Assembly (NCBI GenBank): GCA_965140415.1
Contig: OZ223209.1
Location: 1,024,001-1,088,000 of the forward strand
Source: Myxococcota bacterium
Lineage (GTDB): Bacteria > Myxococcota_A > SURF-8
Direction of reading: 5' to 3'
Length of the DNA: 64,000 nt
Shown here: positions 19,198-50,913 of the stretch, in pieces
How positions within the stretch are numbered: position 1 is the first letter of the stretch
How the letters are laid out: each line of letters starts with the position of its first letter
The notes under the pieces: model-generated
Seen by the model: only the letters and a program-made list of their open reading frames with translations
Database searches by the model: none
What the model was told of the DNA's origin: nothing
Translations under genes and position numbers: made by a program

Positions 19198-19711
19198 AAC
19201 ATCCTCCTTGCACGTACCAGAAAAAAGGCGTCTGTTTCTTAAATCGATTGAGTTGAACTTCCGTGGCGCAGACTCCAACTTGCTCTAAATCATTATATTA
19301 GCACAGCACACAAAAAACACAACTAGAATTGCAGGGGTGCGGTGTTCTGCTGAAAGGATGAGGGCAGTGGCTGGAGGGAGAAAAGCTAAGTGGTTTAAGT
19401 CACTAAATGTATTTAAATTGTGGATAAATAGCCGTTATCTTGAGTACAATGAAGGATCTGCTTGAAATTATAAGGGATTCTTTGGCTAAACCTCAAAATG
19501 ACAAATTCCATAAAGTTCTTCGAAAGGGCTTGAAAGCTCGCTCGATTCTTGCTAGCTTTTTACGTGGGACTTGCCGGAAAATCAAATCCGAATGGGCTTT
19601 GTGTGTTCTAGGTTCCCTATCCGTTACTCCTGCATGATTACTCATCCAAGGGACAGAGATTGTTGTGAGCTTTAAAAGGAGCCATGCATCTCCTTAGAAA
19701 GGCTGAAATCG

Positions 19712-21582: not shown

Positions 21583-22533
21583 ATGACGAATGGAATCACA
21601 GTCGGGATCAGTTCATGTTTACTGGGTAACGAAGTTCGTTACAATGGGCAGCATAAGCTGGACCACTATTTAGCCGATCTTCTAGGGCAATTCGTGCAAT
21701 GGATTCCCGTATGCCCGGAAATGGAATGCGGCTTGCATGTTCCACGGGAATCCATGCATCTGCAAGGCAATTTGTCACAGCCTCATATGGTAACGACAAA
21801 TTCCGGCATCGATCATACGGATCGTATGAAGAACTGGATTGCAATTGCACTACCCGAACTGGAAAAGCAGGATCTTTGTGGATTCGTTTTCAAAACGCGC
21901 TCTCCTTCATGCGGGATGCGTGGAATCAAGGTATACAAAGAAAAAGGCAAACCGATAGGGTCTCGGGCAGGATTATTTGCCGATGCATTTATTGAAACCT
22001 TTCCATTGCTTCCTATCGAAGATGAAGGCCGCCTGAACGATGCGGGTCTGCGAGAGAATTTTATTGAACGTCTTTTCATCGTTCATCGGTGGAAGACGAT
22101 GCAGAAGTCGGGTATGCAGTATAAGGATCTGATTGATTTTCACGCTCGCCACAAATATACGCTGATGGCGCACAGCCCGAAGTATTTAAAACAACTGGGG
22201 GTAATGGTGGCCAGTGGAAAAAAACGAAAACTCGATCTCTTGATGCAGGAATATTTTGCAATGTTGATGGAAGCACTGACGTTAAAAGCGACGATAAGCA
22301 AGAACACCAACGTGCTCCTTCACATTATGGGTTACTTTAAAAACCAGCTGAGCAGCGATGAGAAACAGGAACTTCGAGAAGTTATCGACGATTATCATCA
22401 AGAATTAGTGCCTCTGATTGTCCCTGTTGTGTTGATTCAGCACTATGTCAGAAAATACGATCAGCCCTACCTCAAAGAACAATACTACATCTATCCGCAT
22501 CCGAAAGAGTTGAAGTTACGCAACCACGTTTGA
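21583..22533 (+). CDS. ybgA: DUF523 + DUF1722 protein (YbgA family; DUF523 relates to 2-thiouracil desulfurases)
   Basis: GISSCLLG..VRYNG.HK, PVCPE..CGL..PRE, SPSCG, EDEGRL.D..LRENF, FHAR.KY.LMAH, YL..Q.Y..P.P.EL.LRNHV. Confidence 0.88.
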   Translation: MTNGITVGISSCLLGNEVRYNGQHKLDHYLADLLGQFVQWIPVCPEMECGLHVPRESMHLQGNLSQPHMVTTNSGIDHTDRMKNWIAIALPELEKQDLCGFVFKTRSPSCGMRGIKVYKEKGKPIGSRAGLFADAFIETFPLLPIEDEGRLNDAGLRENFIERLFIVHRWKTMQKSGMQYKDLIDFHARHKYTLMAHSPKYLKQLGVMVASGKKRKLDLLMQEYFAMLMEALTLKATISKNTNVLLHIMGYFKNQLSSDEKQELREVIDDYHQELVPLIVPVVLIQHYVRKYDQPYLKEQYYIYPHPKELKLRNHV

Positions 22534-22627: not shown

Positions 22628-24085
22628 TCAATCAACTCGAACGCAACGTATACAACCGTTGTCTTTTTTCCCATATTTATCTTCATTCAGGTATAAAGCA
22701 CGACTCATTGCTGCCTGGTAATCGCTGGCGGTAATGATCCATGTGAAGTACTGTGTACTGAATTCGAAGATTGCAAATCCGAATTGATACGAACACGTGC
22801 ACTCGTAGGTGCGTGGAGGTGGTTCGTAGACAGGAGCAGGTGGTGGCGGTGGGGAAGGTGGTTCCTGATAGGGTTCTTCGAACGTATCGTAATGCCATTC
22901 ACCATCTTTTACTTGCCCGTTTGAATAGGTCATCACACCTGATCCGTTGCGCTGGCCTTTCGAATTCAAACTTCCTGTGTAGCGGTTTCCATCGTCGTAA
23001 ATGATTACCCCTTTGTCAGGAAAAACGCCATTTGTGAATTGTCCCGTGAAGCTGCCAATGAACGAATAAATACTCCCTAGGGAATGATACGTGCCCGTTC
23101 CGTGATATTTATCGTCTTGCCATTCGCCCTTATAGGAATCACCCGTACACCAGTAAGCCTCCGCATAACCATTCAATTTGCCGGAAATCCAATTGCCATC
23201 CATTTTATACTGTTTAATAGAAGAATTCACTCCGCAAGAATCCGTATAAACGCCTTTGCCCGTGCGCTCTCCGTTAACCCATTCTCCACTGTATTTCTTA
23301 TTGCCACTATACCAGGTTTTCTCGCCGAAACCGTTTTCTCTTCCCTCTTTCCATTCGCCTTTGTAGATACTCCCATTACAATACTGTACTTCTGCATAGC
23401 CATTCAACTTGCCGGAAACCCAGTTGCCATCTGCTGTATACGTTCTTGCTGAATTCTTATTTAAACAGCGATGTGTGAGAATTCCTTTGCCTGTGAGTTT
23501 TTCTTCATCCCACGTCCCTATCGTAGTAAGACCGTTATCTTTCCGTTCTCCCTTGAAATGATATCCATCGCAATAGCTGATTTCGCCTGGGTTCATTAAC
23601 TGGCCAAACTCGTTAAATTTTCCCACCTGGAGGCTTCGATGCGCATCGTAGGTTCCTTCACAAGGAGCTGCTAGAGATCCCTCCACAAAAATGTCGGAGT
23701 CCCATCTACCAATTCTCTCCGTGCGGTCCTGCTTGGTTAGCGTACCATTTCCGTGTTTCTTTCCTTGAAGCATTTCTCCTTCATAGCGGCCCAATTCCTC
23801 ATGCTTGCTATTACTAAAAAATACTTTTCCTTCGCCGGCAGCTAGACCTTCTTTGCAGTCTCCCATCCAGTATACAATCGTTGCGCTGGAGCCTTTTTCC
23901 AGCCATACATAACAGGATTTTCCCTTTCTCTCTTCGGACAGTAGAAAGCATCCCTCGGTTGTTGGCTGTTCATTGTTTTCTTTGCAGACCGGTTCGACGA
24001 GAAAACGTCCGACCGCGTCTTTTACATCCGACCATGAAAACGCTTGGATCAGCGAAGTAAGGATAACCAGGCTCTTCAAAAACAT
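22628..24085 (-). CDS. secreted MORN-repeat protein with Pro-rich linker and small Cys-containing C-terminal domain
   Basis: W.G.C..G.A.G.G then many Y.GEW..G..nG.G repeats; PPSPPPPPAP linker; lower GC than flanking core genes. Confidence 0.8.
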   Translation of the reverse strand: MFLKSLVILTSLIQAFSWSDVKDAVGRFLVEPVCKENNEQPTTEGCFLLSEERKGKSCYVWLEKGSSATIVYWMGDCKEGLAAGEGKVFFSNSKHEELGRYEGEMLQGKKHGNGTLTKQDRTERIGRWDSDIFVEGSLAAPCEGTYDAHRSLQVGKFNEFGQLMNPGEISYCDGYHFKGERKDNGLTTIGTWDEEKLTGKGILTHRCLNKNSARTYTADGNWVSGKLNGYAEVQYCNGSIYKGEWKEGRENGFGEKTWYSGNKKYSGEWVNGERTGKGVYTDSCGVNSSIKQYKMDGNWISGKLNGYAEAYWCTGDSYKGEWQDDKYHGTGTYHSLGSIYSFIGSFTGQFTNGVFPDKGVIIYDDGNRYTGSLNSKGQRNGSGVMTYSNGQVKDGEWHYDTFEEPYQEPPSPPPPPAPVYEPPPRTYECTCSYQFGFAIFEFSTQYFTWIITASDYQAAMSRALYLNEDKYGKKDNGCIRCVRVD

Positions 24086-26972: not shown

Positions 26973-28532
26973 CTATCTCAAACTGCGGACAAGGCGGAAG
27001 CCATGCGAGGGTCCACCTTTTCTCTCTCTTGCTTTAACTTTTCTGTCAGCTAATGATTCTCGAACGTTACATGAAATATAGGCCGCGCGATGGGCTGCAC
27101 GCAGCTCGCATGGATCAACCAAATCGTAACTTCCGCCTCTGTAAGAATAGTTGTGAAGATTTTGGCCCTCACGAAACGGGTCTATATCCGGATTACTGGT
27201 TGTCGATTCCGGATAGCAATCCTCGTCAGATCGATGAATGTACTCCTCCACGTTTCCCAGCATGTCGTAAAGCGTCCAAGCATTGGGTTCTTTCTGCATG
27301 ATAGAACGAGTAGAGTACTCGCCGTTGCAGACATTGGCATAATACCAGGCGATACGATCCAGATTCGGATCCAAGGTCGTGCAAGCACAAGGGCCATCAC
27401 AATCACCATCGACAACGCCGAACTGTTCAAGATTCCCGGAATAAACATCCGTTGTGGTGCCTGCTTTAGCGGCATATTCCCATTCCGCCTCCGTTGGCAG
27501 GCGGTAGCCTTCGCAATCCTGTGGACGCGTTACGCCGTTTAGAGTAACGGTCGCTGTTGTGATCGTTGTCTGGCCTCGATAACAGACCATATAGTCAGTT
27601 GAACTGAATAGCTGGTCTTCCGGCGGAGTATCTTCCGAATTCCAGCAATCGATATTCGAAAACACATAACAGGGCGTTAGTCCCGCTCTTTTCGACAATT
27701 CATTTGCAAAAGCCATGGCATCGAAATCCATGACGCCCTCGACCGGACAGTTTTCAGTACACAGGTTTTGACCGTTGGAGCCGAAATAGGCGGGGTTGTA
27801 ACCCATCAGGGCTTCAAATTCTTCCTGGGTTGCTTCATGCTGCTGAATTTCAAACGGAATCGTTAACTGGACATAATGCAACAATTCGCTATCTTGCCGG
27901 CAAGGGCCTCCACACCACGCAGGATTGCAATTTCCAGTAAAATCTACCGGGCAGGAAAGGCAATCCGGGCTGCCCATCCAAAAGCCACCGGTAGGAATGG
28001 CAACAAAACCTTCAGCCATAGCGTATTCGATATCCTGTTCATTCTCCCAAGTGTCGGCTTCTGTCATTTCATTGGATTCAGTGAACTCGCAAGCATCGTT
28101 TTCTACAAGTTCATCCTCCAAATCGACTTCAACATGTTCCGTAATATCTATATCCTGTTCTATCTCTATGTCCTCTATGTCTGAGATTTCAAACAGGTCG
28201 GAATCCTGCTCTTGCTCCGGATCAGAATCATTTTCAACCACATCCAGTTCCGTAGATTCAACGATGTCGTTATCCAGTTCCATTTCAGAATCTTGATCGG
28301 CGTCCGCTTCTGGGAAATCAACGGAATCCTGATCTCCCAATGCGTCATTTTCCAACACTTCGAATAGTTCCGCATCGGTCAGGTCGTATTCGATGTCGCC
28401 GTCCTGATCGGAAACATCCATCCGATCGACATCCATGTCGCCGTTGGTTTGGCCGTTTTCGTTGGTGCAGGCAACTGCAAGCAGCAGAAAAGCGAATAGA
28501 ATCATGTAGTTCTTGGCGTTCATCGTCCCCAT
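26973..28532 (-). CDS. lipoprotein with long acidic linker and formylglycine-generating-enzyme (FGE-sulfatase/SUMF1) domain
   Basis: Lipobox LAVA-C; F.MGSP; HEATQ; CPVE; GYRLPTEAEWEYAA; PNAW.LYDMLGNV.E; RGGS; GFRLVRS. Confidence 0.88.
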   Translation of the reverse strand: MGTMNAKNYMILFAFLLLAVACTNENGQTNGDMDVDRMDVSDQDGDIEYDLTDAELFEVLENDALGDQDSVDFPEADADQDSEMELDNDIVESTELDVVENDSDPEQEQDSDLFEISDIEDIEIEQDIDITEHVEVDLEDELVENDACEFTESNEMTEADTWENEQDIEYAMAEGFVAIPTGGFWMGSPDCLSCPVDFTGNCNPAWCGGPCRQDSELLHYVQLTIPFEIQQHEATQEEFEALMGYNPAYFGSNGQNLCTENCPVEGVMDFDAMAFANELSKRAGLTPCYVFSNIDCWNSEDTPPEDQLFSSTDYMVCYRGQTTITTATVTLNGVTRPQDCEGYRLPTEAEWEYAAKAGTTTDVYSGNLEQFGVVDGDCDGPCACTTLDPNLDRIAWYYANVCNGEYSTRSIMQKEPNAWTLYDMLGNVEEYIHRSDEDCYPESTTSNPDIDPFREGQNLHNYSYRGGSYDLVDPCELRAAHRAAYISCNVRESLADRKVKARERKGGPSHGFRLVRSLR

Positions 28533-29011
28533 TCCATTCCTGTGGAAGTCCGTTTTCGTAGCGTGTGACGAAGTCCTTGAGTCATAGAATAGACAAATAT
28601 GGGGAAGAATGCAAGCTGAAAGCGGCGACTATTCTACAAGGGGCGCATCACAAGATATTGCGATTGACTTTGAAAACGGGTGCCATCGGCTAAGCGAAGA
28701 GAAACGTAGCTTGCCCATGTGGCTCTTTAACACGGGCAAGCCTGCGGCTTAGCCCGCGCCACCCTGAAATCAGACAGGTTTGCAACTTCTTGTGATGCAC
28801 CCTTCTACAAGCAGGTATCACCGAGAACTGAAATATCCGTTTGACATAATCACATTGTGATAACCCTTTCCGCAATGCCTCGATATACACCCCCAAATGG
28901 AAATTCGCGCCTTGAAATCTCTTGCCTTTTTGCCTTTGATAGAGTAATGATATGAATTCTTTTTAAACGTCTATTATGGGCGGATTCCGGCTGAGAGTAA
29001 GGGAAAAAGAC

Positions 29012-32000
29012 ATGTACAAGAAGGTTGAAAGCTGGGTGGATCTGATCGATTTGGAACATCGCGTTCAGGAGTTCTGGGACGAGACGCAGGCCTTTGACAA
29101 GCTGCGCAAAAAGAACGCGGGAAACGAGCCCTGGTCGTTTCTGGACGGTCCCATTACCGCTAACAATCCCATGGGCGTGCATCACGCCTGGGGACGTACC
29201 TTAAAAGATCTGTTCCAGCGTTATTGGGCCATGAACGGGCGGGATTTGCGCTACCAGAACGGGTTCGACTGCCAGGGCTTGTGGGTGGAAGTCGAAGTCG
29301 AAAAGGAAATGGGCTTCCAGACCAAGCAGGATATTGAAAACTTCGGCATCGACAAGTTCGTCAACGCCTGCAAGGAACGCGTCCGCAAGTTCAGCGGTAT
29401 TCAGACTCAGCAGTCGATTCGCCTGGGTTATTGGATGGATTGGAACGATTCCTATTACACCATGAGCGACGAGAACAACTACACGATCTGGTCGTTTTTG
29501 AAAAAATGCCACGAGCGCGGCAAGATCTATCGCGGCACCGACGTTATGCCCTGGTCCGGTCGCAGCGGCACCGGCTACAGCCAGATGGAAGTCGTGGAAG
29601 GCCGTAAACTGGTCGCGCACGAAGCGATTTTCCTGAAATTCCCGCTACGTGGACGCGAAAAGGAAAACCTGCTGCTCTGGACGACCACGCCCTGGACATT
29701 GACCAGCAACGTGGCCGCCATGATCAATACCGAGCTGGAGTACGTCAAGCTGCGCTGTCTGGGCGATGGCGAGCTCTACTACTTCGCTGCCGAGAACCTG
29801 AACTTCCAGCGCCTGGACCGCGAATTCAAGGAAAAGAAGGAGTGGGTCGATGGCGTTCCGAAGCTGAAAACCCTGTCGCAGATCTTCAAAGAGCGCGGCG
29901 GCTACGAAATAGAAGGCCACATCAAAGGCGAGGAGATGATCGGCTGGGAGTATGACGGTCCCTTTGATGAATTGGAAGCCCAGAAGGAAGTCGGCGGCTA
30001 TCCGTTCACGGATAAAAACGTCGAACTATGCGGAACCACTGCGCATCGCGTCATCGACGGCGGGCGCGACAGCCACGGTGGAGCCGTGGTCGTCGCCGGT
30101 GAGGGTACCGGCATCGTGCATACCGCGCCCGGCTGCGGTGATATCGATCATGAAGTGGGGATGAAGCTGGGGTTGCCGCAGATCGCGCCCCTGGACGAAG
30201 CCGCCCATTTCCTGCCGAAATTCGGGGAGTTGACCGGCAAGCACGCTTTGGCCGAAGAAACCGTGCAGTGGGTCATCGACAGCCTGAAACAGAAAGGGCT
30301 GCTGGTGGCGGTGGAACAGTATCCGCACGTTTACCCGCATTGCTGGCGCTCGGGCGATCCGCTCGTCTTTCGTTTGGTGGACGAATGGTACATCAACATG
30401 GACTGGCGTGACGAGATCAAGGATGTCGTCAAGCAGATCAAGTGGATTCCGGATTGGGGCGAGGAACGCGAGCTGGAATGGCTCACCAACATGCGCGACT
30501 GGATGATCAGTAAAAAGCGCTATTGGGGCCTGGCGCTGCCGATCTGGTTCTGCGACGAATGCGAGCATTTCCACGTCATCGGCGGCAAGGAAGAACTCAA
30601 AGAGCGCGCCATCGAAGGTTGGGAAGAGTTCGAGGGCAACAGCCCGCATCGTCCCTGGGTGGACGCCATCAAGATCAAGTGCGACAAGTGCGGCGCCAAA
30701 ATGCACCGCATTCCCGACGTCGGCAATCCCTGGTTGGACGCCGGTATCGTGCCGTATTCGACCGTCAAGTACAATACGGACCGCGAATACTGGAAAAAGT
30801 GGATGCCCGCCGATCTGGTACTGGAGTGCTTCCCCGGCCAGTTCCGCAACTGGTTCTATTCGCTGCTGGCGATGAGCACCATGATGGAGAACATGCCGCC
30901 GTTCAAAACGCTGTTGGGTCATGCTTTGGTGCGCGATGAAAACGGCGATGAGATGCACAAATCGAAGGGCAACGCGATCTGGTTCGAGGATGCCGCCGAG
31001 AAAATGGGTGCGGACATCATGCGCTGGATCTATTGTACGCACGAAACCACCAGCAACCTGAATTTCGGATACAACGTTGCTCGCGAAGTGCGCGGGAAGT
31101 TCTATAATACTCTATGGAACACCTATTCGTTCTTCGTCAACTATGCGCGTCTGGACGGTTTCACGCCTAGTGCCGAACCGACACCGGTGGCCGAGCGTCC
31201 CGCGTTCGACCGCTGGATTCTGAGCAACCTGCAACTGACTATCGCGGAGGTGCGCAGCAGCATCGAAGCGCAGTATCCGCGCGGAGCGACGCGCGCCATC
31301 AACCAGTTCGTGGAAGATCTGTCCAACTGGTACGTGCGCCACTGTCGCCGCCGTTTCTGGAAGGGCGACGGCGATACCGACAGCCGCAACGCCTATCAGA
31401 CCTTGTACGAATGTCTCTACGCTGTGATTCGCCTGGTCGCACCGATCATGCCCTTTACCACCGAGGAAATCTATCAGAACCTGGTGCGCGCCATCGACGA
31501 AAACGCCCCGGAGAGCATCCATCATACCGATTTCCCGCAAGTGGATGAGACCTTGATCGATCAGCAGTTGAGTGACGACATGGCCGAAATCCAGAACATC
31601 ATCGGCCTGTTCCTCTCTGCGCGCGAATCGGCGGGCGTCAAGGTGCGTCAGCCGCTTTCCGGTGGAGATTATTCTCCCGCCAGCGACAAGCAGCAGCGCG
31701 CCGTCGAACGTTTCGAAGAACTGCTAAAAGAGGATCTGAACATCAAATCGATCACCTTGAAGCCGATCACCGAACCTCTGCCGCCGTTGCCGATCGAATA
31801 TTCGGTCAAGGCCAACCTGAAAGTGTTAGGCAAGCGGCTCGGTAAGCAGTTGAAAGCTTTCAAGGCGGCCTTCAACGAGCAGAAGGATGCCATCGCCGCG
31901 GCGTATACCAAGGGTGAGACGACCTTCAGTGTCGATCTCGGTGGAGAATCGGTGACCTTGGGCAAGGACGATCTATTGGTCAAGGAAGATCGCGCCAAGG

Positions 32001-32320
32001 ATCTGGCCATCGCCGTAGACGGCGAGAACTGGGTGATTCTCGACACTGTAATCACCGAAGAACTGCGCCGGGAAGGGTTGATGCGCGAACTGCTGCGTCG
32101 CCTGCAAGTGCAGCGCAAGGAGATCGGTCTGGAGATCGAGGACCGCATTAATATCACGGTGCAAAGCGACTCCGACACCATGCAGCAGATCTTCACTGAG
32201 TATGGCGACTATCTCAAAGAGGAACTTTTAGCCGTGGAACTGACGATGGGTGAGGCGGCTGACGGCAAAGCTTATAAGCTCGATGGTGAGCAGGCCACGA
32301 TCCTGATCGAGAAAGCCTGA
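29012..32320 (+). CDS. ileS: isoleucine--tRNA ligase, type 2 (IleRS2)
   Basis: FLDGPITAN, GVHH (HIGH variant), GFDCQGLWVE, WTTTPWTL, GTGIVH.APG, YPHCWR, DWMISKKRYWG, EMHKS (KMSKS variant), IleRS2-type C-terminus (EG..RE..R..Q..RK). Confidence 0.95.
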   Translation: MYKKVESWVDLIDLEHRVQEFWDETQAFDKLRKKNAGNEPWSFLDGPITANNPMGVHHAWGRTLKDLFQRYWAMNGRDLRYQNGFDCQGLWVEVEVEKEMGFQTKQDIENFGIDKFVNACKERVRKFSGIQTQQSIRLGYWMDWNDSYYTMSDENNYTIWSFLKKCHERGKIYRGTDVMPWSGRSGTGYSQMEVVEGRKLVAHEAIFLKFPLRGREKENLLLWTTTPWTLTSNVAAMINTELEYVKLRCLGDGELYYFAAENLNFQRLDREFKEKKEWVDGVPKLKTLSQIFKERGGYEIEGHIKGEEMIGWEYDGPFDELEAQKEVGGYPFTDKNVELCGTTAHRVIDGGRDSHGGAVVVAGEGTGIVHTAPGCGDIDHEVGMKLGLPQIAPLDEAAHFLPKFGELTGKHALAEETVQWVIDSLKQKGLLVAVEQYPHVYPHCWRSGDPLVFRLVDEWYINMDWRDEIKDVVKQIKWIPDWGEERELEWLTNMRDWMISKKRYWGLALPIWFCDECEHFHVIGGKEELKERAIEGWEEFEGNSPHRPWVDAIKIKCDKCGAKMHRIPDVGNPWLDAGIVPYSTVKYNTDREYWKKWMPADLVLECFPGQFRNWFYSLLAMSTMMENMPPFKTLLGHALVRDENGDEMHKSKGNAIWFEDAAEKMGADIMRWIYCTHETTSNLNFGYNVAREVRGKFYNTLWNTYSFFVNYARLDGFTPSAEPTPVAERPAFDRWILSNLQLTIAEVRSSIEAQYPRGATRAINQFVEDLSNWYVRHCRRRFWKGDGDTDSRNAYQTLYECLYAVIRLVAPIMPFTTEEIYQNLVRAIDENAPESIHHTDFPQVDETLIDQQLSDDMAEIQNIIGLFLSARESAGVKVRQPLSGGDYSPASDKQQRAVERFEELLKEDLNIKSITLKPITEPLPPLPIEYSVKANLKVLGKRLGKQLKAFKAAFNEQKDAIAAAYTKGETTFSVDLGGESVTLGKDDLLVKEDRAKDLAIAVDGENWVILDTVITEELRREGLMRELLRRLQVQRKEIGLEIEDRINITVQSDSDTMQQIFTEYGDYLKEELLAVELTMGEAADGKAYKLDGEQATILIEKA

Positions 32321-32349
32321 TACGAAAACTCATAGAGTTTGATTCTATT

Positions 32350-32381
32350 ACGCGGGATGTCCAGTGGGTGTCCCGCGTTTT
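32350..32381 (+). terminator. intrinsic terminator after ileS
   Basis: ACGCGGGATGTCC-AGT-GGGTGTCCCGCGTTTT. Confidence 0.7.
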
Positions 32382-33672
32382 ACGTTTTGGGATTCATCTG
32401 CTCGTAGTGAGCAAGCGCGTTGGCGATGCGCTCGACCAGTCCAAGTACGCCGTCGTATCCCATAAACGGCATGGGCAGCAGATGGTGGGTAAAATAAGAG
32501 TGATACCCCAACTCGATGTGGGCGAATGGAAATTTGATGTGTGCTGTATTGAATGAAGGAGAAATCAGTGCGTTTATCTGATTGAGATGATATTCTATCT
32601 CTAACAAGTTAATCAAATCCGAAAAATCGGCATCGAATTTAACGGAGCTGTATTTTTCCTTTTGATCGTCTGCTGAAATATGGCGTTTGTCGGCGGTGGC
32701 GATTGTGGCTGCGATTTCTGCTCCAAAGAACCGCAAGGCTTCCCCTAAAGCAACGATGAAATAGGGATCGCCCATTAACGCAAAGCGTTTTCCAAGCAAA
32801 TAGCGTTCGACTGGAATGCGTAGTTTAGGCAGGATTTCCGCTTCCATCGTTTCGATAATGGACTCGGCGCGAGCTTGTTCGTTGCAGGCTTCTGCCACTA
32901 CCCGGAGAAAATCAGCACAGCCTTCCACGCCGATGGGCAGAGGTGCTTCCACTACCTGTGAGCCTGTGCGCCGGGCCAGGATCTGTGCCGCTTTGCGACC
33001 ATAAGGTAGAGATATCAGAATTCCGGCCTGTGCCACTTGTGCCAGCTCTTGGCAGGTTTCACCGGAAAACCAGATTGTACCCGGCGTCAATCCGAGCATA
33101 GACAGCAGCAGACGGATCTGTTGCAGGTTGGCTTGATGATCGCTTTCGTTGCGGTCCATGAAATAACCGATGACCGCCACCGTTTTGGGAATGGGTTTTG
33201 CTTCGGGAAGTGGAAGACGTTTTGCCAGTTCGGAAAGCATGGAGCCATAGCCGTCGAGCCAGTCTAGTTGCAGTTCTCCCTGAACCAAAGGGAGAACCGG
33301 TTTGTTGTATCGATCCTGTGCATCTTCGAAAATAGGGTCGTAGTCGCGGTGTGTCGCTTCGACCATCGTAGACGCCGTGACGGCGATAGCGGAAAACGCT
33401 GGGTCTTGACCTACTTGATTCAGCGCCTTTTCTAACGAGGAGGTATCTCCCATCGAACAGACGGGAATTGTGAGTTGTGTATTGATATGGCGCGGATTGG
33501 GAATACGAGCCAGCGTACTGAACCAGTCGTGGCTGCCGCTGATGCGCGTGGTTTTATTCATGTAACAGTCCGGCGCGTCGCTGATCAGCGCCAGATCGGC
33601 AATGGCGTTGGCGGCGAAATAGACACCATCGGAAAAAACCGGACATAATGAAGGTAGGTACTTGCTGATCAT
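32380..33672 (-). CDS. nitrogenase component-1 type oxidoreductase subunit (NifK/BchB-like paralog)
   Basis: GVYFAANAI.D....DAPDC; DWLDGY; VAVIGYFMDRNE.D; PLPIG.EG...FL; PFMGYDG. ATGA overlap with the upstream gene. Confidence 0.8.
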   Translation of the reverse strand: MISKYLPSLCPVFSDGVYFAANAIADLALISDAPDCYMNKTTRISGSHDWFSTLARIPNPRHINTQLTIPVCSMGDTSSLEKALNQVGQDPAFSAIAVTASTMVEATHRDYDPIFEDAQDRYNKPVLPLVQGELQLDWLDGYGSMLSELAKRLPLPEAKPIPKTVAVIGYFMDRNESDHQANLQQIRLLLSMLGLTPGTIWFSGETCQELAQVAQAGILISLPYGRKAAQILARRTGSQVVEAPLPIGVEGCADFLRVVAEACNEQARAESIIETMEAEILPKLRIPVERYLLGKRFALMGDPYFIVALGEALRFFGAEIAATIATADKRHISADDQKEKYSSVKFDADFSDLINLLEIEYHLNQINALISPSFNTAHIKFPFAHIELGYHSYFTHHLLPMPFMGYDGVLGLVERIANALAHYEQMNPKT

Positions 33673-35840
33673 GACTCGTGTGTTTTCCTTATTCGGTCAG
33701 CGATCCGTCTATAATAAGGCGTTTCACAGCGTTGCATGAGACGCTCGAAGCTGCGGTCCGCACCTTGGAAACCCATTTCGAAATCGCGCACGGAGAAAGT
33801 CGGTTTTCCTACGGTGAAAGCGCGTTCTTCGTGACTGTAATCGCTGTACACCGCGCCGATCTCCGGTTGGACGAGTAGATGCTGTAATTCTTCTTGGGTG
33901 CTGAAACATTCGACTTGAAGTTCGCTTAAATCCACCGTTTCTTCCTTGCTTGTTGCTAGCAATTCGCGAAGGGAAGGGCAGAAGTCTGGAATGGAAGCAT
34001 CTTCGAAAACCAGCGCCCGGCAGGAAAAACCGAACTCTCGCAATACACGAAGAAGTGAGAGGCCATCATTGGAGAGTGGCTCCCAGATGCGTCGTAGCTG
34101 GCTTGCTTCAACAACGAAGGCCAGTGTGATCGATGCACTTCGCTGCTGCCATTGTTGCAATTGACGTTGCAGATCCTGTTCGATCTTTGCATAAGCGGCT
34201 TGCCAGCGGTCGGATAGATCAAGTGCTTGTGCGATTGCCTCGCACCATAGGCGCGTCGCTTCAATTCCAAATGGTGCTGGAGGTTGGATATGTGGAATGT
34301 TTTCGAATGACTCGAACAGGTTTTTAAGATTTTCTTCGAACGTATTGGAAATCGGAAAGACCTGTAACCAGGCTTGATGGAAACCGGTTAGCTGAGCCGG
34401 TTCGAGGTTCGGAATCACTTGTGCAGAAACTTCGATGCCGCTGTTATTTAAGCTGTGTACCAGTTCCTGAGTGTCGGGTCCGGCAGGCAAGCCGATCAAG
34501 GCGACCGAAGGCAGTTCGTTACGCTTGGGCGGCATGGCCGGGTCGATCAGTTTTTCGAACAGCATCCGCAGGGAAGCTTCCGGCGAAATGAAATAATCTT
34601 CCGGGTAAAAGGGGAAGACCTCCAGTTTGGAATCCTGCTTGATCTCGTTTAAAAGTGCGTTTACATTTTGACCCAGTAATTTGAACAAACAGGTTTTACG
34701 GATGACATAGGTGCGCTCCGGGTTGGCGTTATTCGCGCTTTCCAGTAACAAACCACGCAAAACGTCTTCTCCGCCGGTCAGCAGGGCGTCATGTCCGCGA
34801 ATGTCGGTGGCCAGGGTAGAGGAGGTATGGTCAAGGTGATTTCCCTGCCCCTCGTGAGAACGCAGATTGTATAACGAATATTCCTGCTTTGGAATTGCCG
34901 GGGAAATACTCATGCAGGCGCGGTCGGCATGTTGAATGAGCGATACGTTCGGCGCATCCATCCAACGAAAAGCATGACGGCTTTCAATTTCACCTACTGC
35001 CATAAATTGCCGCCAGCGTGTTTCAGGCGGCAGAAAATAATAGCTATCCAGTTGTTTCACGGCTCCAAGTTGTAGAATACTGGCCAAGGCAGGTGAGATT
35101 TCGTCGGAATAGGTTTGTTGTCCTTCGAACTTGGGTAGTATTCGTGCAATTGCAAAGCCGACTGCTCGCTCCACCTGGTGCTCGATTGTTTCGCGCTCTT
35201 GTGCGCTACGTTCATCCGTATTCTGATAGAGCGACAGAAAACCGCGTTGGAGTAATAGGCGGCTTTCTCCATGCGTCTTGGGGTGCGTCTCGGTTTGTCG
35301 GGGATCGCTTATCCGTAGATCGAAACTTACTTTTATTTGTCCATCGGAAAAGATCAACTGGACGGAATTTCGCCCGGGAAGGACTTGCTTGATGCGGTAA
35401 CGATGCCAGCCGGATCGCTCCGGCTCGAACCAGTTCGTAATTCGCGAAATACATTCTTCGGCCTGGATTCCTTCTTCCGAATTTTCCAGTGGTATCAGTG
35501 CGCAAAACGATGGCCTGGAAAGGGAAGAGGAAAGTGTGCGTCCCAGGATGTGAAGCAACTCGTTTTCAAGTCCGGTCTGCTTGCTTTCCACTTTGCCGAA
35601 GGCAAAGCAGCCGGGCAGGTTGTCCAGTTTCTTTCCGATTCCTTCGAGCCAGGAGATGTGGACCGTTCCAAGGGAACTCTCGAACAAGAAACTCAATGAG
35701 CCATCCACTTCGGGAAAGGCGCTGACGTCCCAGGGCTGACCGCTGCGACGTGTGGCCAGCGCTGCCGCGATACGAGCCAGCGCGTGGCAACCCAGGTCCG
35801 GTCGCAGGCGGATATCGAGCGTTCCTTCGGGCGATGTCAT
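33669..35840 (-). CDS. nitrogenase component-1 type subunit (NifD/BchN-like paralog) with about 280-aa N-terminal extension of unknown family
   Basis: The C-terminal part has TDIR..D...GGE..L, KTC...LG.NV, VALIG.P, PAPFGIEAT..W, DFEMGFQGA. It is translationally coupled (ATGA) on both sides. Confidence 0.72.
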   Translation of the reverse strand: MTSPEGTLDIRLRPDLGCHALARIAAALATRRSGQPWDVSAFPEVDGSLSFLFESSLGTVHISWLEGIGKKLDNLPGCFAFGKVESKQTGLENELLHILGRTLSSSLSRPSFCALIPLENSEEGIQAEECISRITNWFEPERSGWHRYRIKQVLPGRNSVQLIFSDGQIKVSFDLRISDPRQTETHPKTHGESRLLLQRGFLSLYQNTDERSAQERETIEHQVERAVGFAIARILPKFEGQQTYSDEISPALASILQLGAVKQLDSYYFLPPETRWRQFMAVGEIESRHAFRWMDAPNVSLIQHADRACMSISPAIPKQEYSLYNLRSHEGQGNHLDHTSSTLATDIRGHDALLTGGEDVLRGLLLESANNANPERTYVIRKTCLFKLLGQNVNALLNEIKQDSKLEVFPFYPEDYFISPEASLRMLFEKLIDPAMPPKRNELPSVALIGLPAGPDTQELVHSLNNSGIEVSAQVIPNLEPAQLTGFHQAWLQVFPISNTFEENLKNLFESFENIPHIQPPAPFGIEATRLWCEAIAQALDLSDRWQAAYAKIEQDLQRQLQQWQQRSASITLAFVVEASQLRRIWEPLSNDGLSLLRVLREFGFSCRALVFEDASIPDFCPSLRELLATSKEETVDLSELQVECFSTQEELQHLLVQPEIGAVYSDYSHEERAFTVGKPTFSVRDFEMGFQGADRSFERLMQRCETPYYRRIADRIRKTHES

Positions 35841-36679
35841 AAGGAACTACCCCGTTGTGTCTGGATGAAACTGAAGAAGGCTTCATCGTCCAGCGGTGTG
35901 GGCAGTACGAGATCCTTATCGGGCAGGCGTTCAAGTTGTTGCGACAGCGCCTCGAAGCGCTTGGATGCTTCGGATTGCGGCGCATATTCGGAGACCGTTT
36001 GCCCGTGGATTTCGGCTTCTCCTATCAAGGGATCGCGCGGCATGACGGCCAGAATCGGAGCGCCAAGCTGCTCTGCAAAACGTTCAGGCAAAGAAACGGG
36101 AACGCTGTTGTCTCGTCGATTGACGACGATGCCTGCCAGACGGATACCACTGCGTTGCAACCGTACAATGGCGCGTGCGATGTTGTTGGCGGCAAACAGC
36201 GACATCACTTCTTCGCTGATGACCAGCACGACCATATCGGCAAAACCTTTGCGCAAAGGCGCGGCAAAACCACCGCAAACCACGTCGCCGAGGATGTCGA
36301 ACACGATGGCCTTGTAGCCGTTACGCTGGTAGTCGTTTTCCTCCAGCATACTTAATACGCGAGCCACGCCCCAGCCTCCGCAACCCAAACCGGGTTCGGG
36401 GCCGCCCGCCTCGATGCAGTCGATATCCGCAGCACCTTTCCGGATGAACTGGTTCAGGTGCAATTCTCCATCTTGGATTTCGATCAATTTGGAGGCGACC
36501 GTCACCGGGCGCTCCCCGTGTGTCAACAGAATGGTCGAATCGCTTTTCGGATCACAGCCGACGTGCAGGACTTTTCCACCGCGCAAGGCGAACTGCATGG
36601 ACAGATTGGCGGAAATCGTCGATTTACCGATGCCGCCTTTTCCGTATATCGCCAGTTTTACCGTTTCTCGTTCGAACAT
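35837..36679 (-). CDS. nitrogenase iron protein-like ATPase (NifH/BchL/CfbC family paralog)
   Basis: AIYGKGGIGKST, GCDPKSDST, EAGGPEPGLGCGG, DILGDVVCGGFAAP, MSLFAANNI; both [4Fe-4S] Cys ligands present. Confidence 0.93.
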   Translation of the reverse strand: MFERETVKLAIYGKGGIGKSTISANLSMQFALRGGKVLHVGCDPKSDSTILLTHGERPVTVASKLIEIQDGELHLNQFIRKGAADIDCIEAGGPEPGLGCGGWGVARVLSMLEENDYQRNGYKAIVFDILGDVVCGGFAAPLRKGFADMVVLVISEEVMSLFAANNIARAIVRLQRSGIRLAGIVVNRRDNSVPVSLPERFAEQLGAPILAVMPRDPLIGEAEIHGQTVSEYAPQSEASKRFEALSQQLERLPDKDLVLPTPLDDEAFFSFIQTQRGSSL

Positions 36680-36718
36680 AAACGTGTCACTCTCATATGA
36701 TAGACGTATATAACAGCG

Positions 36719-36747
36719 ATACTAAATAGTTTGCGTGGTGAGCGCAA
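36719..36747 (-). promoter_or_regulatory. sigma70-type promoter of the nitrogenase-like operon
   Basis: Minus strand TTGCGC-N17-TAGTAT 40 bp upstream of the NifH-like start. Confidence 0.5.
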
Positions 36748-36805
36748 GGTAAAAAGGGGGCTGTGTCCGTTCGTGTTTAGAGGTAGCCTTTATAAAGAGT
36801 AATCG

Positions 36806-37996
36806 TTACTGTGGGTCACTGTCTGGGAGTGAATGCTGGGATTGCTGCATACGAATCCAGGGAGCGAGCGTCTGTCCCACGACCTTGTTTCCCAGTCGAT
36901 TCCAGTGGAAGTCTTTATCGAAGTAAACCTTTTCCCCCCGCCGTTCGTAGGTTTGCAGATTTGTGAGTAGATCGAATGTTGGAATCGAAAGCGACGCGGT
37001 GGTTTGTTGCAATAGGCGATTAGGTTGGGTCCAGTCGATCTGCTCATCGGTAACCTGCTTTTCCAACTCCGCCTGCTCCTGTGGCCGCACCTGTTCTCGC
37101 GAAGGCGCCAGTGCGTAAAGCAGGGTGATGCCACGCCGGTCCAATTCGGTTTTCATTTCATTTAAAATGGCTCGTTCGACCCGGATTCCCTGTTCGATAC
37201 GAGGAAGCTGCTGCACTAGAAAAATTTCGTTGATGTAAGCGGTCGCTTTCGTTTTTTCGAGCGTTTTATCCAGTGAGTCCAGAGCGTGATACAGCACCCG
37301 GAACAGGTAGGAACGTTGGTAGAGACCCATCCATTTTCCCATGGTGCGTAAGGCCCAGCGTTCCGCGAAATCGCCGGAGGGTTTTGTTAGCGGCAGTCCA
37401 TGCGTTTGCAGCTCTCCGTTTGCTGACAGGCTGAAACTCGGGCGGGGATAGATTTCCAAGTTGGGACGGTCCGCGAGGTTGTCGTACAGGTCGTTTCCAG
37501 GATAAGCCATTACCAAAACAATATCCGGCTCAAACGCAAGCACGTCGCGTTGCAATTGCAGCCATTGTTGGCCACGACCGAAGCCGCTTACTCCGAAATT
37601 GAGCACCTCGTAGTTTTTTCCTAGTTGCCGCTCCAGCACTTCGGTGAAAATTTCGTCGTTATTCACGGAAAATCCCCAGGTGAACGAATCACCCAGTACG
37701 GCGATGCGACGTATGTTTTTCGGTTTTTCAAGGAAGTATTCTCGGTCGCGCATGCCGGAAGAATTGATGCTCACCTGGACTTTGAACTCATCGCCTTGTG
37801 AGAACTCGCCTTGGGTGTTTGGGATGCAGTGCCAGCCCAGATGATCGTCGAATTCGAAGAAAACGAACTGATTTCCCTGCTGTACGAATGAGTCCGTAAA
37901 TGACCACCTGGCCGCCAGTTCCGCCCCCAAAACGATCAGTCCGATCAGGACAAGATTCACAATGATAATGGTAAAAGCTTGTTTCAAATTTTTCAT
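36806..37996 (-). CDS. membrane-anchored SGNH/GDSL hydrolase (AlgX/acetyltransferase-like)
   Basis: N-terminal TM; INSSGMRD; LGDSFTWG; NFGVSGFG; GND; DFHWN..G. Confidence 0.85.
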   Translation of the reverse strand: MKNLKQAFTIIIVNLVLIGLIVLGAELAARWSFTDSFVQQGNQFVFFEFDDHLGWHCIPNTQGEFSQGDEFKVQVSINSSGMRDREYFLEKPKNIRRIAVLGDSFTWGFSVNNDEIFTEVLERQLGKNYEVLNFGVSGFGRGQQWLQLQRDVLAFEPDIVLVMAYPGNDLYDNLADRPNLEIYPRPSFSLSANGELQTHGLPLTKPSGDFAERWALRTMGKWMGLYQRSYLFRVLYHALDSLDKTLEKTKATAYINEIFLVQQLPRIEQGIRVERAILNEMKTELDRRGITLLYALAPSREQVRPQEQAELEKQVTDEQIDWTQPNRLLQQTTASLSIPTFDLLTNLQTYERRGEKVYFDKDFHWNRLGNKVVGQTLAPWIRMQQSQHSLPDSDPQ

Positions 37997-41698: not shown

Positions 41699-43897
41699 AT
41701 GAATATGGACCCGATCTATTTAGACTACAACGCTACCACACCCATCGACCCACGGGTTGGTGAAGCGATGATCCCCTTTATTCGTAAACATTACGGCAAT
41801 CCGAGTAGTAGTCACGTTTTGGGCGTGGCTACACGGCAGGCCGTTGACCGTGCCCGCAAGCAGGTGGCGGAACTGCTTGGTTGCGGAATCGAAGAGGTCA
41901 TCTTTACCTCCGGGGGCTCGGAGTCTAACAACTACGCGATTAAGGGAATCGCCTGGGCGCGCAGGGACCGTGGCAATCACATCGTGACTTCGGCCATCGA
42001 ACACCCGGCTGTGATCGAGGTCTGCCGCTATCTGGAGGAACATGGATTCAGCGTTACCTATTTGCCGGTAGATGCTGACGGTCTGGTCTCGGTTGCGGAT
42101 TTAGAAGCCTCTCTTACACCCAGGACTATCCTCGTCTCCATCATGCACGCCAACAACGAGGTGGGAAGCATTCAGCCCATCGCAGAGATGGCGGCTATCA
42201 CTCGGGCGCGTGGCATCGCCTTCCATACGGATTGCGCCCAGGCCGTCGGTAAAGTCCCCGTGCGGGTTGACGATTTAGGCGTGGACCTGCTGTCCGTGGC
42301 CGGACACAAACTCTATGCACCAAAAGGAATTGGGGCTCTGTACGTGCGTAGCGGCACTCGACTCGAAAAGCTGGTACATGGTGCCGATCACGAGATGAAC
42401 TGGAGGGCCGGAACCGAGAACGTGTTGGAAATCGTGGGATTGGGAGAAGCCTGTCGCCTGGTCCGTGAAGATCTGGACGAGGAGATGCCCCGTCTGGCAA
42501 CGCTGCGTAACAAACTGGAACACAGCTTGCGCGAGCGCTATCCCGACTTGCGTTTCAATGGTCATTCTGAAAAGCGTCTGCCCAACACGGCCAGCATCAG
42601 TTTTCCGAGTCTTGAGGCCAATACGATTCTCAGTGAGTTGACCGGCGTTGCCGCCTCGGCGGGGGCGGCCTGCCACAGCGACCACGTTGACGTTTCCGCC
42701 GTGCTGACCGCCATGAACGTACCCCTGGAATACGCCATGGGCACCTTGCGGTTTTCCGTCGGACGATTCACCACCGAGCAGGAGATCGACCGGGCGATTA
42801 TCGAGATCGGCGAGGTCGTGGACCGCTTACAGCCTGCGGGCCTCTGCGAAGTGGCAGCTTCTGACGAGGAGATCAAGCTGACCCGCTTCACCCATGGATT
42901 GGGCTGTGCCTGCAAACTGCGTCCCCAGGTGCTGGAATCCGTAGTGAGCCGCCTGGCTCTGCCGGACGATCCCAAGGTGTTGGTTGGAGCCGATACTTCC
43001 GATGATGCTGCCGTTTACAAACTGGACGACCTAACGGCCCTGATCGCCACGGTGGATTTCTTCACTCCCATTGTGGATGACCCATACGAGTTTGGAGCCA
43101 TTGCCGCCGCCAATTCACTGAGCGATGTCTACGCCATGGGAGGACGCCCATTGTTCGCCTTGAACGTGGTGGGTTTTCCCTCAAATCGCCTGCCGGTTTC
43201 GGTTCTGGAAAAGATTCTGCTTGGCGCTCAGAACAAGGCGAAAGAGGCGGGTATAAACATTGTGGGAGGCCATACGGTAGATGACACGGAACCCAAGTTC
43301 GGTCTGGCCGTAACCGGTGTTGTGGCTCTCGATAAGATGGTGGCTAATCGTGGCGCTTGTCCCGGCGATGTTCTGGTGCTGACCAAGCCGTTGGGAACCG
43401 GTGTGCTGTCTACGGCTCTTAAACAGGGATTGTTGGACGAGACACAGCGGCAACGTCTGGTGGAAACCATGGCCTGCTTGAACTGGGGCGCTGCCGAGGC
43501 GATGCAGGAAGTCGGCGTGCACGCCGCAACGGATATTACCGGCTTTGGATTGTGCGGACATCTTCTGGAAATGCTGAAGGCTTCGGGTGTTGGTGGAGAA
43601 CTCCGCTTCGACGCGGTGCCATTCTTACCCGGTGTGTTCGAGTTGGCGGCTTCGGGTGTGATCCCCGGCGGGTCACGAGACAACTTCGAGTTCACTCGAC
43701 CTCACCTGACTTATCCTGAGTCCTTGTCGGAAATTCGCAGGATCGTGCTCAACGACGCGCAGACTTCGGGCGGGTTGCTGATTGCCGTGGCTGAGGATCG
43801 AGTCGCCGATCTGCTACGGGTGCTGGATGCGAAGCAGGTTGAAACGCAGGCTGTAGTTGGAAGCATCACCGAAGGTTCCGGCATACGCGTGATCTAA
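41699..43897 (+). CDS. selD: fusion of cysteine desulfurase/selenocysteine lyase (NifS-type) and selenide, water dikinase (SelD)
   Basis: N-half: YLDYNATTP, FTSGGSESNN, AIEHPAV, MHANNEVG, GHK.YAPKG, SAGAACHS. C-half: LTRFTHGLGCACK, DDAAVY, TVDFFTP, AANSLSDVYAMGG, GGHT, TDITGFGL.GH, DAQTSGGLL. Confidence 0.93.
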   Translation: MNMDPIYLDYNATTPIDPRVGEAMIPFIRKHYGNPSSSHVLGVATRQAVDRARKQVAELLGCGIEEVIFTSGGSESNNYAIKGIAWARRDRGNHIVTSAIEHPAVIEVCRYLEEHGFSVTYLPVDADGLVSVADLEASLTPRTILVSIMHANNEVGSIQPIAEMAAITRARGIAFHTDCAQAVGKVPVRVDDLGVDLLSVAGHKLYAPKGIGALYVRSGTRLEKLVHGADHEMNWRAGTENVLEIVGLGEACRLVREDLDEEMPRLATLRNKLEHSLRERYPDLRFNGHSEKRLPNTASISFPSLEANTILSELTGVAASAGAACHSDHVDVSAVLTAMNVPLEYAMGTLRFSVGRFTTEQEIDRAIIEIGEVVDRLQPAGLCEVAASDEEIKLTRFTHGLGCACKLRPQVLESVVSRLALPDDPKVLVGADTSDDAAVYKLDDLTALIATVDFFTPIVDDPYEFGAIAAANSLSDVYAMGGRPLFALNVVGFPSNRLPVSVLEKILLGAQNKAKEAGINIVGGHTVDDTEPKFGLAVTGVVALDKMVANRGACPGDVLVLTKPLGTGVLSTALKQGLLDETQRQRLVETMACLNWGAAEAMQEVGVHAATDITGFGLCGHLLEMLKASGVGGELRFDAVPFLPGVFELAASGVIPGGSRDNFEFTRPHLTYPESLSEIRRIVLNDAQTSGGLLIAVAEDRVADLLRVLDAKQVETQAVVGSITEGSGIRVI

Positions 43898-48391: not shown

Positions 48392-48438
48392 AGGAGGTGC
48401 GTATCATGAAGGTCTGTCTACGAATATCGGAGGAGAGG

Positions 48439-49629: not shown

Positions 49630-49682
49630 GATATTTGGTGATTTCTGAATTCATGACACTGAAAAAGTCATAGAGGAAAGCC

Positions 49683-50867: not shown

Positions 50868-50913
50868 GCTTAAATGATCTTGGGTTACATGAAACATGCG
50901 ATTGGGTGAAATC

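Follow-up and report, generated by a model that had tools for sequence, protein, structure and literature searches.

A stretch of 64,000 nucleotides from the genome of a Myxococcota bacterium (GTDB lineage Bacteria; Myxococcota_A; SURF-8; NCBI GenBank assembly GCA_965140415.1, contig OZ223209.1, positions 1,024,001 to 1,088,000 of the forward strand), referred to here as the window, carries on its minus strand an operon of three genes, H1, D1 and K1, that encodes a real relative of nitrogenase that is unable to fix nitrogen. The operon is a member of a known, uncharacterised group: sequence comparisons place it among the Group VI nitrogenase-like (NFL) systems in the broad sense, within an early-branching clade with long NifD-like subunits, the long-NflD clade, which has so far been seen in Myxococcota-type genomes and in metagenomes. 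Group VI has no characterised member and probably carries [4Fe-4S]-type clusters, according to section 7 of a 2026 review (PMC13474568). The reading favoured here, with a probability of about 0.72, is that the three proteins would form a two-component ATP-driven NFL reductase that holds a [4Fe-4S] cluster by three cysteines and acts on an organic substrate, with a recognition module on D1. The system is not categorically new; what is new is its early-branching position, the two-lobed module of its NflD subunit, the occurrence of a pair of paralogous cassettes in one genome and the absence of linked radical SAM genes.

Composition and family placement of the operon

The operon comprises three intact open reading frames (ORFs), obtained by ORF calling, in the order H1, D1 and K1. 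H1 (positions 35837-36679, minus strand) encodes a NifH-type Fe-protein homologue of 280 aa (NflH-like), assigned from Pfam, NCBIfam, an alignment and a tree; D1 (33669-35840, minus strand) encodes a long NifD-like subunit of 723 aa (NflD-like), assigned from Pfam, a representative search, AlphaFold2 and Foldseek; and K1 (32380-33672, minus strand) encodes a NifK-like subunit of 430 aa (NflK-like), assigned from Pfam, an alignment and a tree. Both junctions read ATGA, with the D1 start overlapping the H1 stop and the K1 start overlapping the D1 stop, as had been described in the original prediction, which was made from the sequence of the window without database searches.

H1 matches Pfam Fer4_NifH (1.9e-80) and possesses the P-loop GKGGIGKST (residues 13-21), the CDPKSDST motif and the switch regions, together with Cys100 and Cys135, which align with the cluster cysteines of NifH, BchL and BchX. 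Judged by these residues, the motif set of a NifH-type ATPase is complete in H1, down to the pair of cysteines predicted to bridge a [4Fe-4S] cluster in the dimer, in keeping with the NifH-type ATPase with both cluster cysteines proposed originally. Its NCBIfam scores lie below the respective cut-offs for nifH (269.9 bits against 394.35), CfbC (265.1 against 402), BchL (213 against 345) and BchX (178 against 331). The best relatives of H1 share 62-46% identity with it and, where named, belong to Myxococcales, Polyangia and Elusimicrobiota.

The other two proteins had been proposed to be component-1 subunits, and both match Pfam Oxidored_nitro, K1 over its whole length (2.4e-41) and D1 over residues 301-582 only (8.5e-19). 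D1 and K1 score 10-52 bits on every NCBIfam component-1 equivalog against cut-offs of 324-874; the nifD, nifK and nifE models give 16-39 bits against 427-654, BchN 52 against 420 and BchB 46 against 490. The C-terminal part of D1 has NifE, MarD and NifD as its top Foldseek matches (E down to 2e-16), with the MarD match at E 1.3e-15 and a TM score of 0.73 on the target, and methylthio-alkane reductase (MAR; PDB 9D9U, 9FMG) is the best PDB sequence-profile match of the K family (7.8e-25). A representative search with D1 returned 580 relatives at E<=1e-3, and a word-based homologue search found only D1 itself and no close relatives.

The genome is a single 5.98-Mb contig and contains a second cassette 140 kb away (G000:C1:914734-919071, corresponding to L013:9734-14071) in the order D2 (737 aa), K2 (438 aa) and H2 (273 aa), whose products share 40% (H), 23% (D) and 28% (K) identity with those of the window cassette. 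A scan with the K alignment, taking one genome per species, returned 76 loci at 28-37% identity to K1, distributed among Elusimicrobia, including GWA2_69_24 and GWA2_66_18, many metagenome-assembled genomes (MAGs) of Myxococcota, and a few others; of these, GWA2_69_24 appears by name in Meheust et al. 2020 (bioRxiv 10.1101/765248). Relatives of K1 are present in all five same-family genomes searched, in three of four same-order genomes and in 7 of 51 other genomes of the phylum, and each of four relative loci, from three of these genomes, has genes for H, for K and for a D protein of 715-782 aa. It had been suggested that the operon might be a minimal version of such a system; in the sense of a reduced one-off this does not hold, given the second divergent cassette in the genome and the K1 relatives in every same-family genome searched.

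The K tree contains a 96-row clade (SH-aLRT 97) that unites K1, K2 and the NflK of GWA2_69_24 and GWA2_66_18, with NifK, BchB/Z and BchN/Y outside. K2 is the first branch within this clade, and K1 sits in a 6-row clade (98) with four metagenome proteins and a Myxococcota MAG (L020), which is sister (94) to the other 89 rows. NifH references split off in the H tree at 100, and H1, which clusters with sequences of Elusimicrobia and Myxococcota loci, lies in a 14-row clade (92). In the D tree, built from the component-1 domain only, D1 lies in a 12-row clade composed entirely of long forms (99), inside a 113-row set (support 80) with the same Elusimicrobia genomes. The agreement of the K, H and D trees supports the original view of a putative uncharacterised ATP-driven NFL reductase tied to an Elusimicrobia/Myxococcales clade. 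Placement among bona fide Nif, DPOR/COR or Cfb proteins, the outcome that had been named as speaking against that view, was not found, since all scores lie far below the curated cut-offs and the clade of K1 stands apart from NifK, BchB/Z and BchN/Y.

Group VI is described from Elusimicrobia, Gracilibacteria and Myxococcales, and the window cassette resembles it in possessing a NifH-type protein with a P-loop and two cluster cysteines, in the very divergent D and K subunits that lack the ligands of the FeMo cofactor (FeMo-co) and part of the P-cluster cysteines, in the absence of NifB from the genome, in the clustering of K1, D1 and H1 with GWA2_69_24, GWA2_66_18 and other Elusimicrobia sequences, and in its uncharacterised function. 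The cassette differs from other members in its early-branching position, at 28-37% identity to other NflK, and in an NflD that is ~100-150 aa longer, with an extra first-position lobe in its N-terminal module. It also has no radical SAM gene within 188 kb, while one or more ORFs with a CX3CX2C motif occur at 44 of the 76 other loci.

To place the cluster ligands, profile alignments were made to reference subunits from annotated plasmids. Only C309, C384 and P477 are invariant across 109 aligned D relatives, and C36 is the only invariant cysteine of K1 in 12 aligned K sequences. In D1, C309 falls at the second P-cluster position (R. etli NifD C98, BchN C49, NifE C70) and C384 at the third (R. 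etli NifD C164, BchN C110, NifE C132), and the first position aligns to R288 or F291. For K1 C36 the match is to the second P-cluster position against C. butyricum NifK (C48) and BchZ (C35), one residue away from BchB Asp36, and the third position in K1 is occupied by Thr102; D32 of K1 hardly varies, D35 occurs commonly and three of the five closest relatives share C10. Three of six P-cluster positions (D1 C309 and C384, K1 C36) are thus filled by cysteine, a count within the Group VI limit of at most four, and the original prediction was right in reporting no canonical P-cluster cysteine set. The same prediction had found no FeMo-co Cys/His motifs; this stands for the Cys position, which aligns to D1 Ile497 and is the only part of the claim that the alignment covers. 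In A. vinelandii numbering, the reference ligands are presumably Cys62/88/154, Cys70/95/153 and Cys275, in line with the review (PMC13474568), and D1 C309 and C384 would then correspond to Cys88 and Cys154.

The pairing of the two subunits was predicted with D1 residues 270-723 and K1, giving an ipSAE of 0.71 against 0.00 for the best control, the mark for this score being reached by 58 of 80 solved complexes and by 2 of 110 mismatched pairs. The prediction runs share at least 77% of their contacts, with a partner pLDDT of 88 or more, and the interface comprises D1 residues 306-314 and 383-385 and K1 residues 11-15, 34-43 and 101-103. D1 and K1 are therefore predicted to pair by a surface that places D1 Cys309 and Cys384 next to K1 Cys36, a result that may reflect likeness to solved NifDK-type complexes and is not proof of pairing. 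The ligand alignments and the model together indicate a putative single inter-subunit [4Fe-4S] cluster held by three cysteines and a non-cysteine or open fourth site, an arrangement that resembles DPOR. A P-cluster and a FeMo-co or L-cluster are not expected, because the other ligands are missing and the genome lacks NifB: the best genome-wide match to TIGR01290 scores 29.1 bits against a cut-off of 343.65, at a genome completeness of 93.7%. PF00148 matches in four places genome-wide, D1, K1 and the second pair, leaving no NifE or NifN, and the 33 window ORFs scanned with Pfam include no nifB, nifE, nifN, bch/chl, cfb or radical SAM gene, as had been stated from the sequence.

DPOR and COR (BchLNB/ChlLNB and BchXYZ; Group V) share with the window system the build of a three-subunit ATP-driven reductase without a FeMo-co-type cluster and a single inter-subunit [4Fe-4S] site with three cysteines, which is predicted here from the sequence and the model; the alignments of D1 C309 and C384 to BchN C49 and C110, and the position of K1 C36 next to BchB Asp36, follow this likeness. 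The cysteines of DPOR all come from the N subunit, whereas those of the window system would come two from D1 and one from K1; D1 has no cysteine at the first position, which aligns to F291, the scores lie far below the BchL/N/B/X/Y/Z cut-offs, no bch/chl genes are present in the window, and BchN and BchY lack an N-terminal module. The H1 score for CfbC is close to that for nifH (265 against 270 bits) and simple [4Fe-4S] chemistry would be expected, as for CfbCD (Group IV-B), but H1 falls below the 402-bit CfbC cut-off. CfbD works without a K subunit and holds a symmetric cysteine-ligated cluster (PMC13474568), whereas D1 and K1 are distinct and predicted to pair. MarD ranks with the closest structures to the C-terminal domain of D1, but MAR (MarHDK; Group IV-C) carries P- and L-type clusters and depends on a NifB homologue (PMC13474568), and the window system lacks three of six P-cluster cysteines, the FeMo-co/L-cluster cysteine and NifB. 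Isethionate reductase (ISR; Group IV-F) is likewise without the canonical ligands (PMC13474568), and membership of the ISR type would be excluded only by the close tie of the operon to Group VI sequences.

The N-terminal module of D1 and radical SAM proteins

D1 is ~290 aa longer than a usual component-1 subunit and splits into a separate N-terminal module (residues 1-240; positions 35121-35840, minus strand), delimited by an AlphaFold2 model and profile comparison, and a component-1 fold domain (residues 296-723; positions 33672-34955, minus strand) that contains the invariant Cys309 and Cys384. Neither the extra length nor the module appears in the original description of the gene. The first 290 residues have no Pfam match, and nine relatives (E 1e-69 to 1e-101, 27-32% identity), with others besides, retain the whole stretch. 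The AlphaFold2 model has a mean pLDDT of 88.7 for the whole of D1 and 84.7 for residues 1-295 alone, and shows two alpha+beta lobes, at ~8-114 and ~123-237, followed by a linker with a conserved W276/F279 (WRQFMA) motif. A Foldseek search of the N-terminal model against the PDB returned 0 matches at E<=1e-3, and a search of the ESM Atlas with the module gave no usable match. A wide VIA-align search gave a best Z of 7.3, with all values below 8, a level at which a match may reflect just a common arrangement; the look-alikes of lobe 1 (Z 5.2-7.3) are the lipid-binding half-barrels BPI, SPLUNC1, Mdm12, CETP and latherin, and those of lobe 2 are KA1, TBP-like and Bet v 1-like chains. A new fold is not claimed. 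An origin of the module from a degenerate NifH was considered and rejected, as the profile probability is 0.4% and the model consists of alpha+beta lobes, not a P-loop fold.

In most other Group VI NflD proteins the N-terminal extension is shorter, at ~140-160 aa. When 59 of these extensions are combined in a profile, it aligns to D1 residues 135-296 with 96% probability (E 4.6e-9), and lobe 2 alone aligns to the short add-on domain with 87% probability (E 3.7e-6); by profile comparison, lobe 2 of D1 is related to the short add-on domain of other Group VI NflD. About 25 further NflD relatives are NifH-NflD fusions in which a NifH domain stands in place of the N-terminal extension: these are single ORFs of ~750-800 aa, from Elusimicrobia and some Myxococcota, with a complete NifH and a component-1 domain, followed by NflK (for example L021:7655-9955, L055:7536-9941 and L079:7596-9956, and about 20 more loci). 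The long forms are basal branches of the D tree, and the short and NifH-fused forms fall in one derived 91-row set, with the label 'long' requiring three changes; this suggests that the two-lobed form may be old, on a tree that is a quick search without a mixture model and carries long-branch warnings. The main texts of Meheust 2020 and of the review (PMC13474568) mention no N-terminal module, NifH-NflD fusion or Myxococcota-specific clade, which their supplements may list.

The original prediction had reported that the operon lacks the radical SAM neighbours of its relatives, and this is confirmed over a wider range: the nearest real match of any neighbour-type radical SAM profile lies 188 kb from the H1-D1-K1 cassette and 298 kb from the second cassette. 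None of the 18 ORFs at 20-48 kb of the window contains CX3CX2C. The CX3CX2C ORFs in 44 of 76 other loci reproduce the published radical SAM association, and one radical SAM family accounts for 71 members in 34 loci; radical SAM genes beside nfl genes range from none to 13 in the account of Meheust 2020 (bioRxiv 10.1101/765248). No radical SAM ORF is present at the seven long-NflD loci compared (the window, L013, L185-L188 and L094). At L095, a member of the same clade as the window cassette, one follows directly after K, and 4-7 CX3CX2C ORFs per locus occur in the second long-NflD clade (L015, L016, L035, L085).

Three iterations of the short add-on profile over every ORF of the retrieved loci brought in 21 ORFs other than NflD, in most of which the domain stands immediately ahead of a CX3CX2C motif. 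Fourteen copies borne by radical SAM proteins were counted, and all eight ORFs tested, among them the one after K at L095, match Pfam Radical_SAM; ORFs with a ~100-130-aa add-on domain before the CX3CX2C core include L077:6709-8136, L056:4889-6223 and L095:6082-6816, among others. The module at the N-terminus of D1 most likely serves to recognise a substrate or a partner. Its lobe 2 is akin to an add-on domain found both in other Group VI NflD and in the radical SAM proteins encoded beside them. In the organism's own genome, the profiles of the long-form lobes match D1 and D2 only, and the short-form profile gives no match, not even to D1 or D2, and is hence a weak blank.

Genome-wide, 83 ORFs match neighbour-type radical SAM profiles, and some score in the range of true family members. 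These were considered as possible unlinked partners, but no link is claimed, as the families are generic and the best NCBIfam matches are to HxsC-like models below the cut-off. One radical SAM protein, encoded outside the window, is a 1253-aa ORF (G000:C1:2934528-2938289; L191:6528-10289) with 4Fe-4S dicluster ferredoxin, carbamoyltransferase N and C, and radical SAM domains, which adjoins a further radical SAM gene. At five other loci, too, carbamoyltransferases are found next to Group VI nfl genes.

Proposed mechanism and candidate substrates

In the proposed mechanism, a dimer of H1 would bind MgATP and dock on the D1-K1 pair, and H1 would hand single electrons to one [4Fe-4S] cluster between D1 and K1. 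Three cysteines would hold the cluster, with its fourth site open or taken by a ligand other than cysteine, in a manner close to that of DPOR (three Cys plus Asp); from there the electrons would move to an organic substrate bound in D1, with the two-lobed N-terminal module recognising the substrate or a partner. This electron path is proposed because of the conserved motifs and homology. Several points weigh against the reading as a whole. The equivalence of K1 C36 is ambiguous, as it aligns to the second P-cluster position against three references and to the first against R. etli NifK. The BchL/X references in the H tree and BchN/Y in the D tree lie in unresolved forks near the base, so that Group VI and Group V are not cleanly split, and the trees are quick searches, two of them without a mixture model and with long-branch warnings. 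They also left out the Group IV references CfbCD, Mar, Isr and Nfa, and the exclusion from Group IV would rest on the NCBIfam cut-offs, the ligand patterns and the close tie of D1 and K1 to Group VI. Lobe 2 of D1 and the domain borne by radical SAM proteins are not directly detectable as related (4%), the link passing through the short NflD form, and neither the window nor the loci of relatives contains a pointer to a tetrapyrrole pathway.

As a best guess, the enzyme would reduce a C=C bond by two electrons, in a conjugated and hydrophobic molecule of large size. Among single substrate classes a tetrapyrrole-type macrocycle ranks first, at clearly less than even odds, and a lipid or isoprenoid second, at a good deal less. 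In its specific form, the first possibility is that the operon encodes a tetrapyrrole reductase in the synthesis of an uncharted cofactor, with the two to four paralogues per genome acting on different double bonds within one macrocycle, as DPOR and COR do. This is tentatively entertained, though rated less likely than not: a tetrapyrrole role has been proposed for Group VI (Meheust 2020, bioRxiv 10.1101/765248) and repeated in the review (PMC13474568), the predicted three-cysteine site resembles the three Cys plus Asp of DPOR (ligand set from PMC13474568), and in the H and D trees the Bch references diverge close to where the group begins. The genome, which also contains a haem-copper oxidase, has two HEM4 matches and on that evidence can make uroporphyrinogen III. 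However, no tetrapyrrole gene was found beside the seven long-NflD loci, which were compared with one another by sequence only and of whose flanking ORFs a part was scanned with Pfam, the single CobN-type chelatase is ~300 kb off beside a TonB-dependent receptor and an ExbB-like gene, and the published case rests on neighbouring B12-binding and HemN_C radical SAM genes that are absent here. The chelatase gene itself (1362 aa; G000:C1:1379767-1386218; L193:9171-16218) is the only CobN/Mg-chelatase-type gene; it lies between the receptor and the ExbB-like gene, some 300 kb from the cassette, and is not in a cobalamin or chlorophyll cluster.

Reduction of a lipid, isoprenoid or other hydrophobic non-tetrapyrrole, with the N-terminal module as a cradle for a hydrophobic ligand, is unlikely, although the neighbours of the window's clade lean towards it. 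The upstream co-directional genes there encode lipid- or carotenoid-type enzymes: an SGNH/GDSL-AlgX-like protein in the window, a PlsB-type glycerol-3-phosphate acyltransferase that ends 4 bp before H at L020 and a CrtC/lipocalin protein 80 bp before H at L094. The look-alikes of lobe 1 are lipid-binding half-barrels (Z 5.2-7.3), but all Z values are below 8 and the likeness may be only a common arrangement. The three neighbours, moreover, differ from one another, and no flanking gene is conserved among the loci of relatives. Action on lipids is not known for any NFL enzyme (see also PMC13474568).

The cleavage of a C-S bond, or of another C-X bond, for anaerobic sulfur acquisition, in the manner of methylthio-alkane or isethionate reductase, is improbable. 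Recently assigned NFL functions are of this kind (PMC13474568), a gene of the FGE-sulfatase family lies beside each cassette (positions 26973-28532, minus strand, in the window, and L013:6761-9556, divergently upstream of D2), and the window contains a TauE/SafE gene at positions 10158-10904. MAR, however, uses P- and L-type clusters and needs a NifB homologue (PMC13474568), and here three of six P-cluster cysteines and NifB are missing; the operon also includes no gene for sulfur transport or sulfur assimilation. FGE-sulfatase has 37 matches in the genome, among them a further one in the window (52219-53715, minus strand), and no counterpart beside the cassettes of relatives, so that its adjacency is probably due to chance.

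A decaying or non-catalytic relic, or a true nitrogenase, is hardly credible. The very high divergence, with 23% identity between D1 and D2 and no close relatives, might suggest decay, but none of the three frames is broken, translation of the genes is coupled, the motifs for nucleotide binding and for the cluster are conserved and the cassette is kept in all five same-family genomes. For a true nitrogenase, family resemblance only could be cited, and the lack of FeMo-co and P-cluster ligands, together with the genome-wide absence of NifB, NifE and NifN, rules it out.

A more far-reaching version of the proposed ATP-driven reductase, which is quite unlikely in its full form, is that the long-NflD cassette represents the ancestral, self-sufficient form of Group VI, and perhaps of Group V. 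The module would then be a built-in recognition device, of which one lobe later persisted by itself, passed to radical SAM partners or gave way to a fused NifH. Such a cassette would work without radical SAM enzymes on a non-tetrapyrrole hydrophobic substrate in an oxygen-respiring myxobacterium-type organism, and its paralogues would have diversified under sensor-kinase control.

Genomic setting and significance

The cassette lies between an ileS-type gene and an SGNH hydrolase gene, as read originally; by Pfam the product of the first is a class I tRNA synthetase of 1114 aa with DUF5915 (positions 28976-32320, plus strand) and that of the second an SGNH/AlgX-like protein (36806-37996, minus strand). 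The operon is convergent with the tRNA synthetase gene, and between the two a hairpin scan found a GC-rich hairpin of 13 pairs followed by a T-run (32350-32378), which is likely to be the terminator of both the tRNA synthetase gene and K1. The SGNH/AlgX-like gene is on the same strand as the operon and ends 126 bp upstream of H1. This gap (36680-36805, minus strand), examined by reading the sequence and by site scans, presumably holds the promoter, and contains a weak terminator-like hairpin at 36747-36731. The scan for sigma70-like sites over 32200-37000 found two, against 3.2 expected from shuffles, and none in the gap, and no sigma54-like match, with up to two mismatches allowed, was found there. 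The sigma70-like promoter of the original prediction (TTGCGC, 17 nt, TAGTAT) fits ~7 of 12 consensus positions and is not borne out by the scan. Among three sequencing runs of one study, no RNA run was present.

Downstream of the second cassette are genes for a PAS histidine kinase, a response regulator, and a protein with response-regulator, PAS and GGDEF domains. No flanking gene is common to the seven long-NflD loci compared, with the exception of PAS sensor kinases, which are present at three of the seven, counting L013.

Elsewhere in the window, a 732-aa ORF (41699-43897, plus strand) combines a class-V aminotransferase domain of the NifS/cysteine-desulfurase type with AIRS and AIRS_C domains, as in selenophosphate synthetase-type proteins. 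The region at 47693-52107 (plus strand) contains a proline-rich repeat ORF with a tandem 18-bp unit (47866-48204), followed by three paralogous ORFs of ~400 aa that each carry collagen triple-helix repeats, two of them with a weak Xlink-like C-terminus. On the minus strand, a bacterial alpha-2-macroglobulin of 1670 aa is encoded at 3287-8299, and proteins of 1799 and 739 aa with ASH/HYDIN-type Ig-like domains are encoded at 11550-16949 and 17059-19278. A 2-thiouracil desulfurase/DUF1722 protein gene (21583-22533, plus strand) and a gene for a 485-aa MORN-repeat protein (22628-24085, minus strand) lie in a stretch of lower GC content, 45-47% against ~53% elsewhere.

Group VI is the one named group of nitrogenase relatives without a characterised member (PMC13474568), and gene context has not revealed its substrate. 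The two three-gene cassettes of this genome, with no need for NifB and no linked radical SAM genes, are about the simplest constructs of the group to express. The conserved N-terminal module of NflD, present as one lobe in most members and as two here, replaced by a fused NifH in others, and sharing a domain with radical SAM neighbours elsewhere, provides a handle for the search for the substrate, and the early-branching long forms bear on the origin of the DPOR-type three-cysteine [4Fe-4S] reductases.

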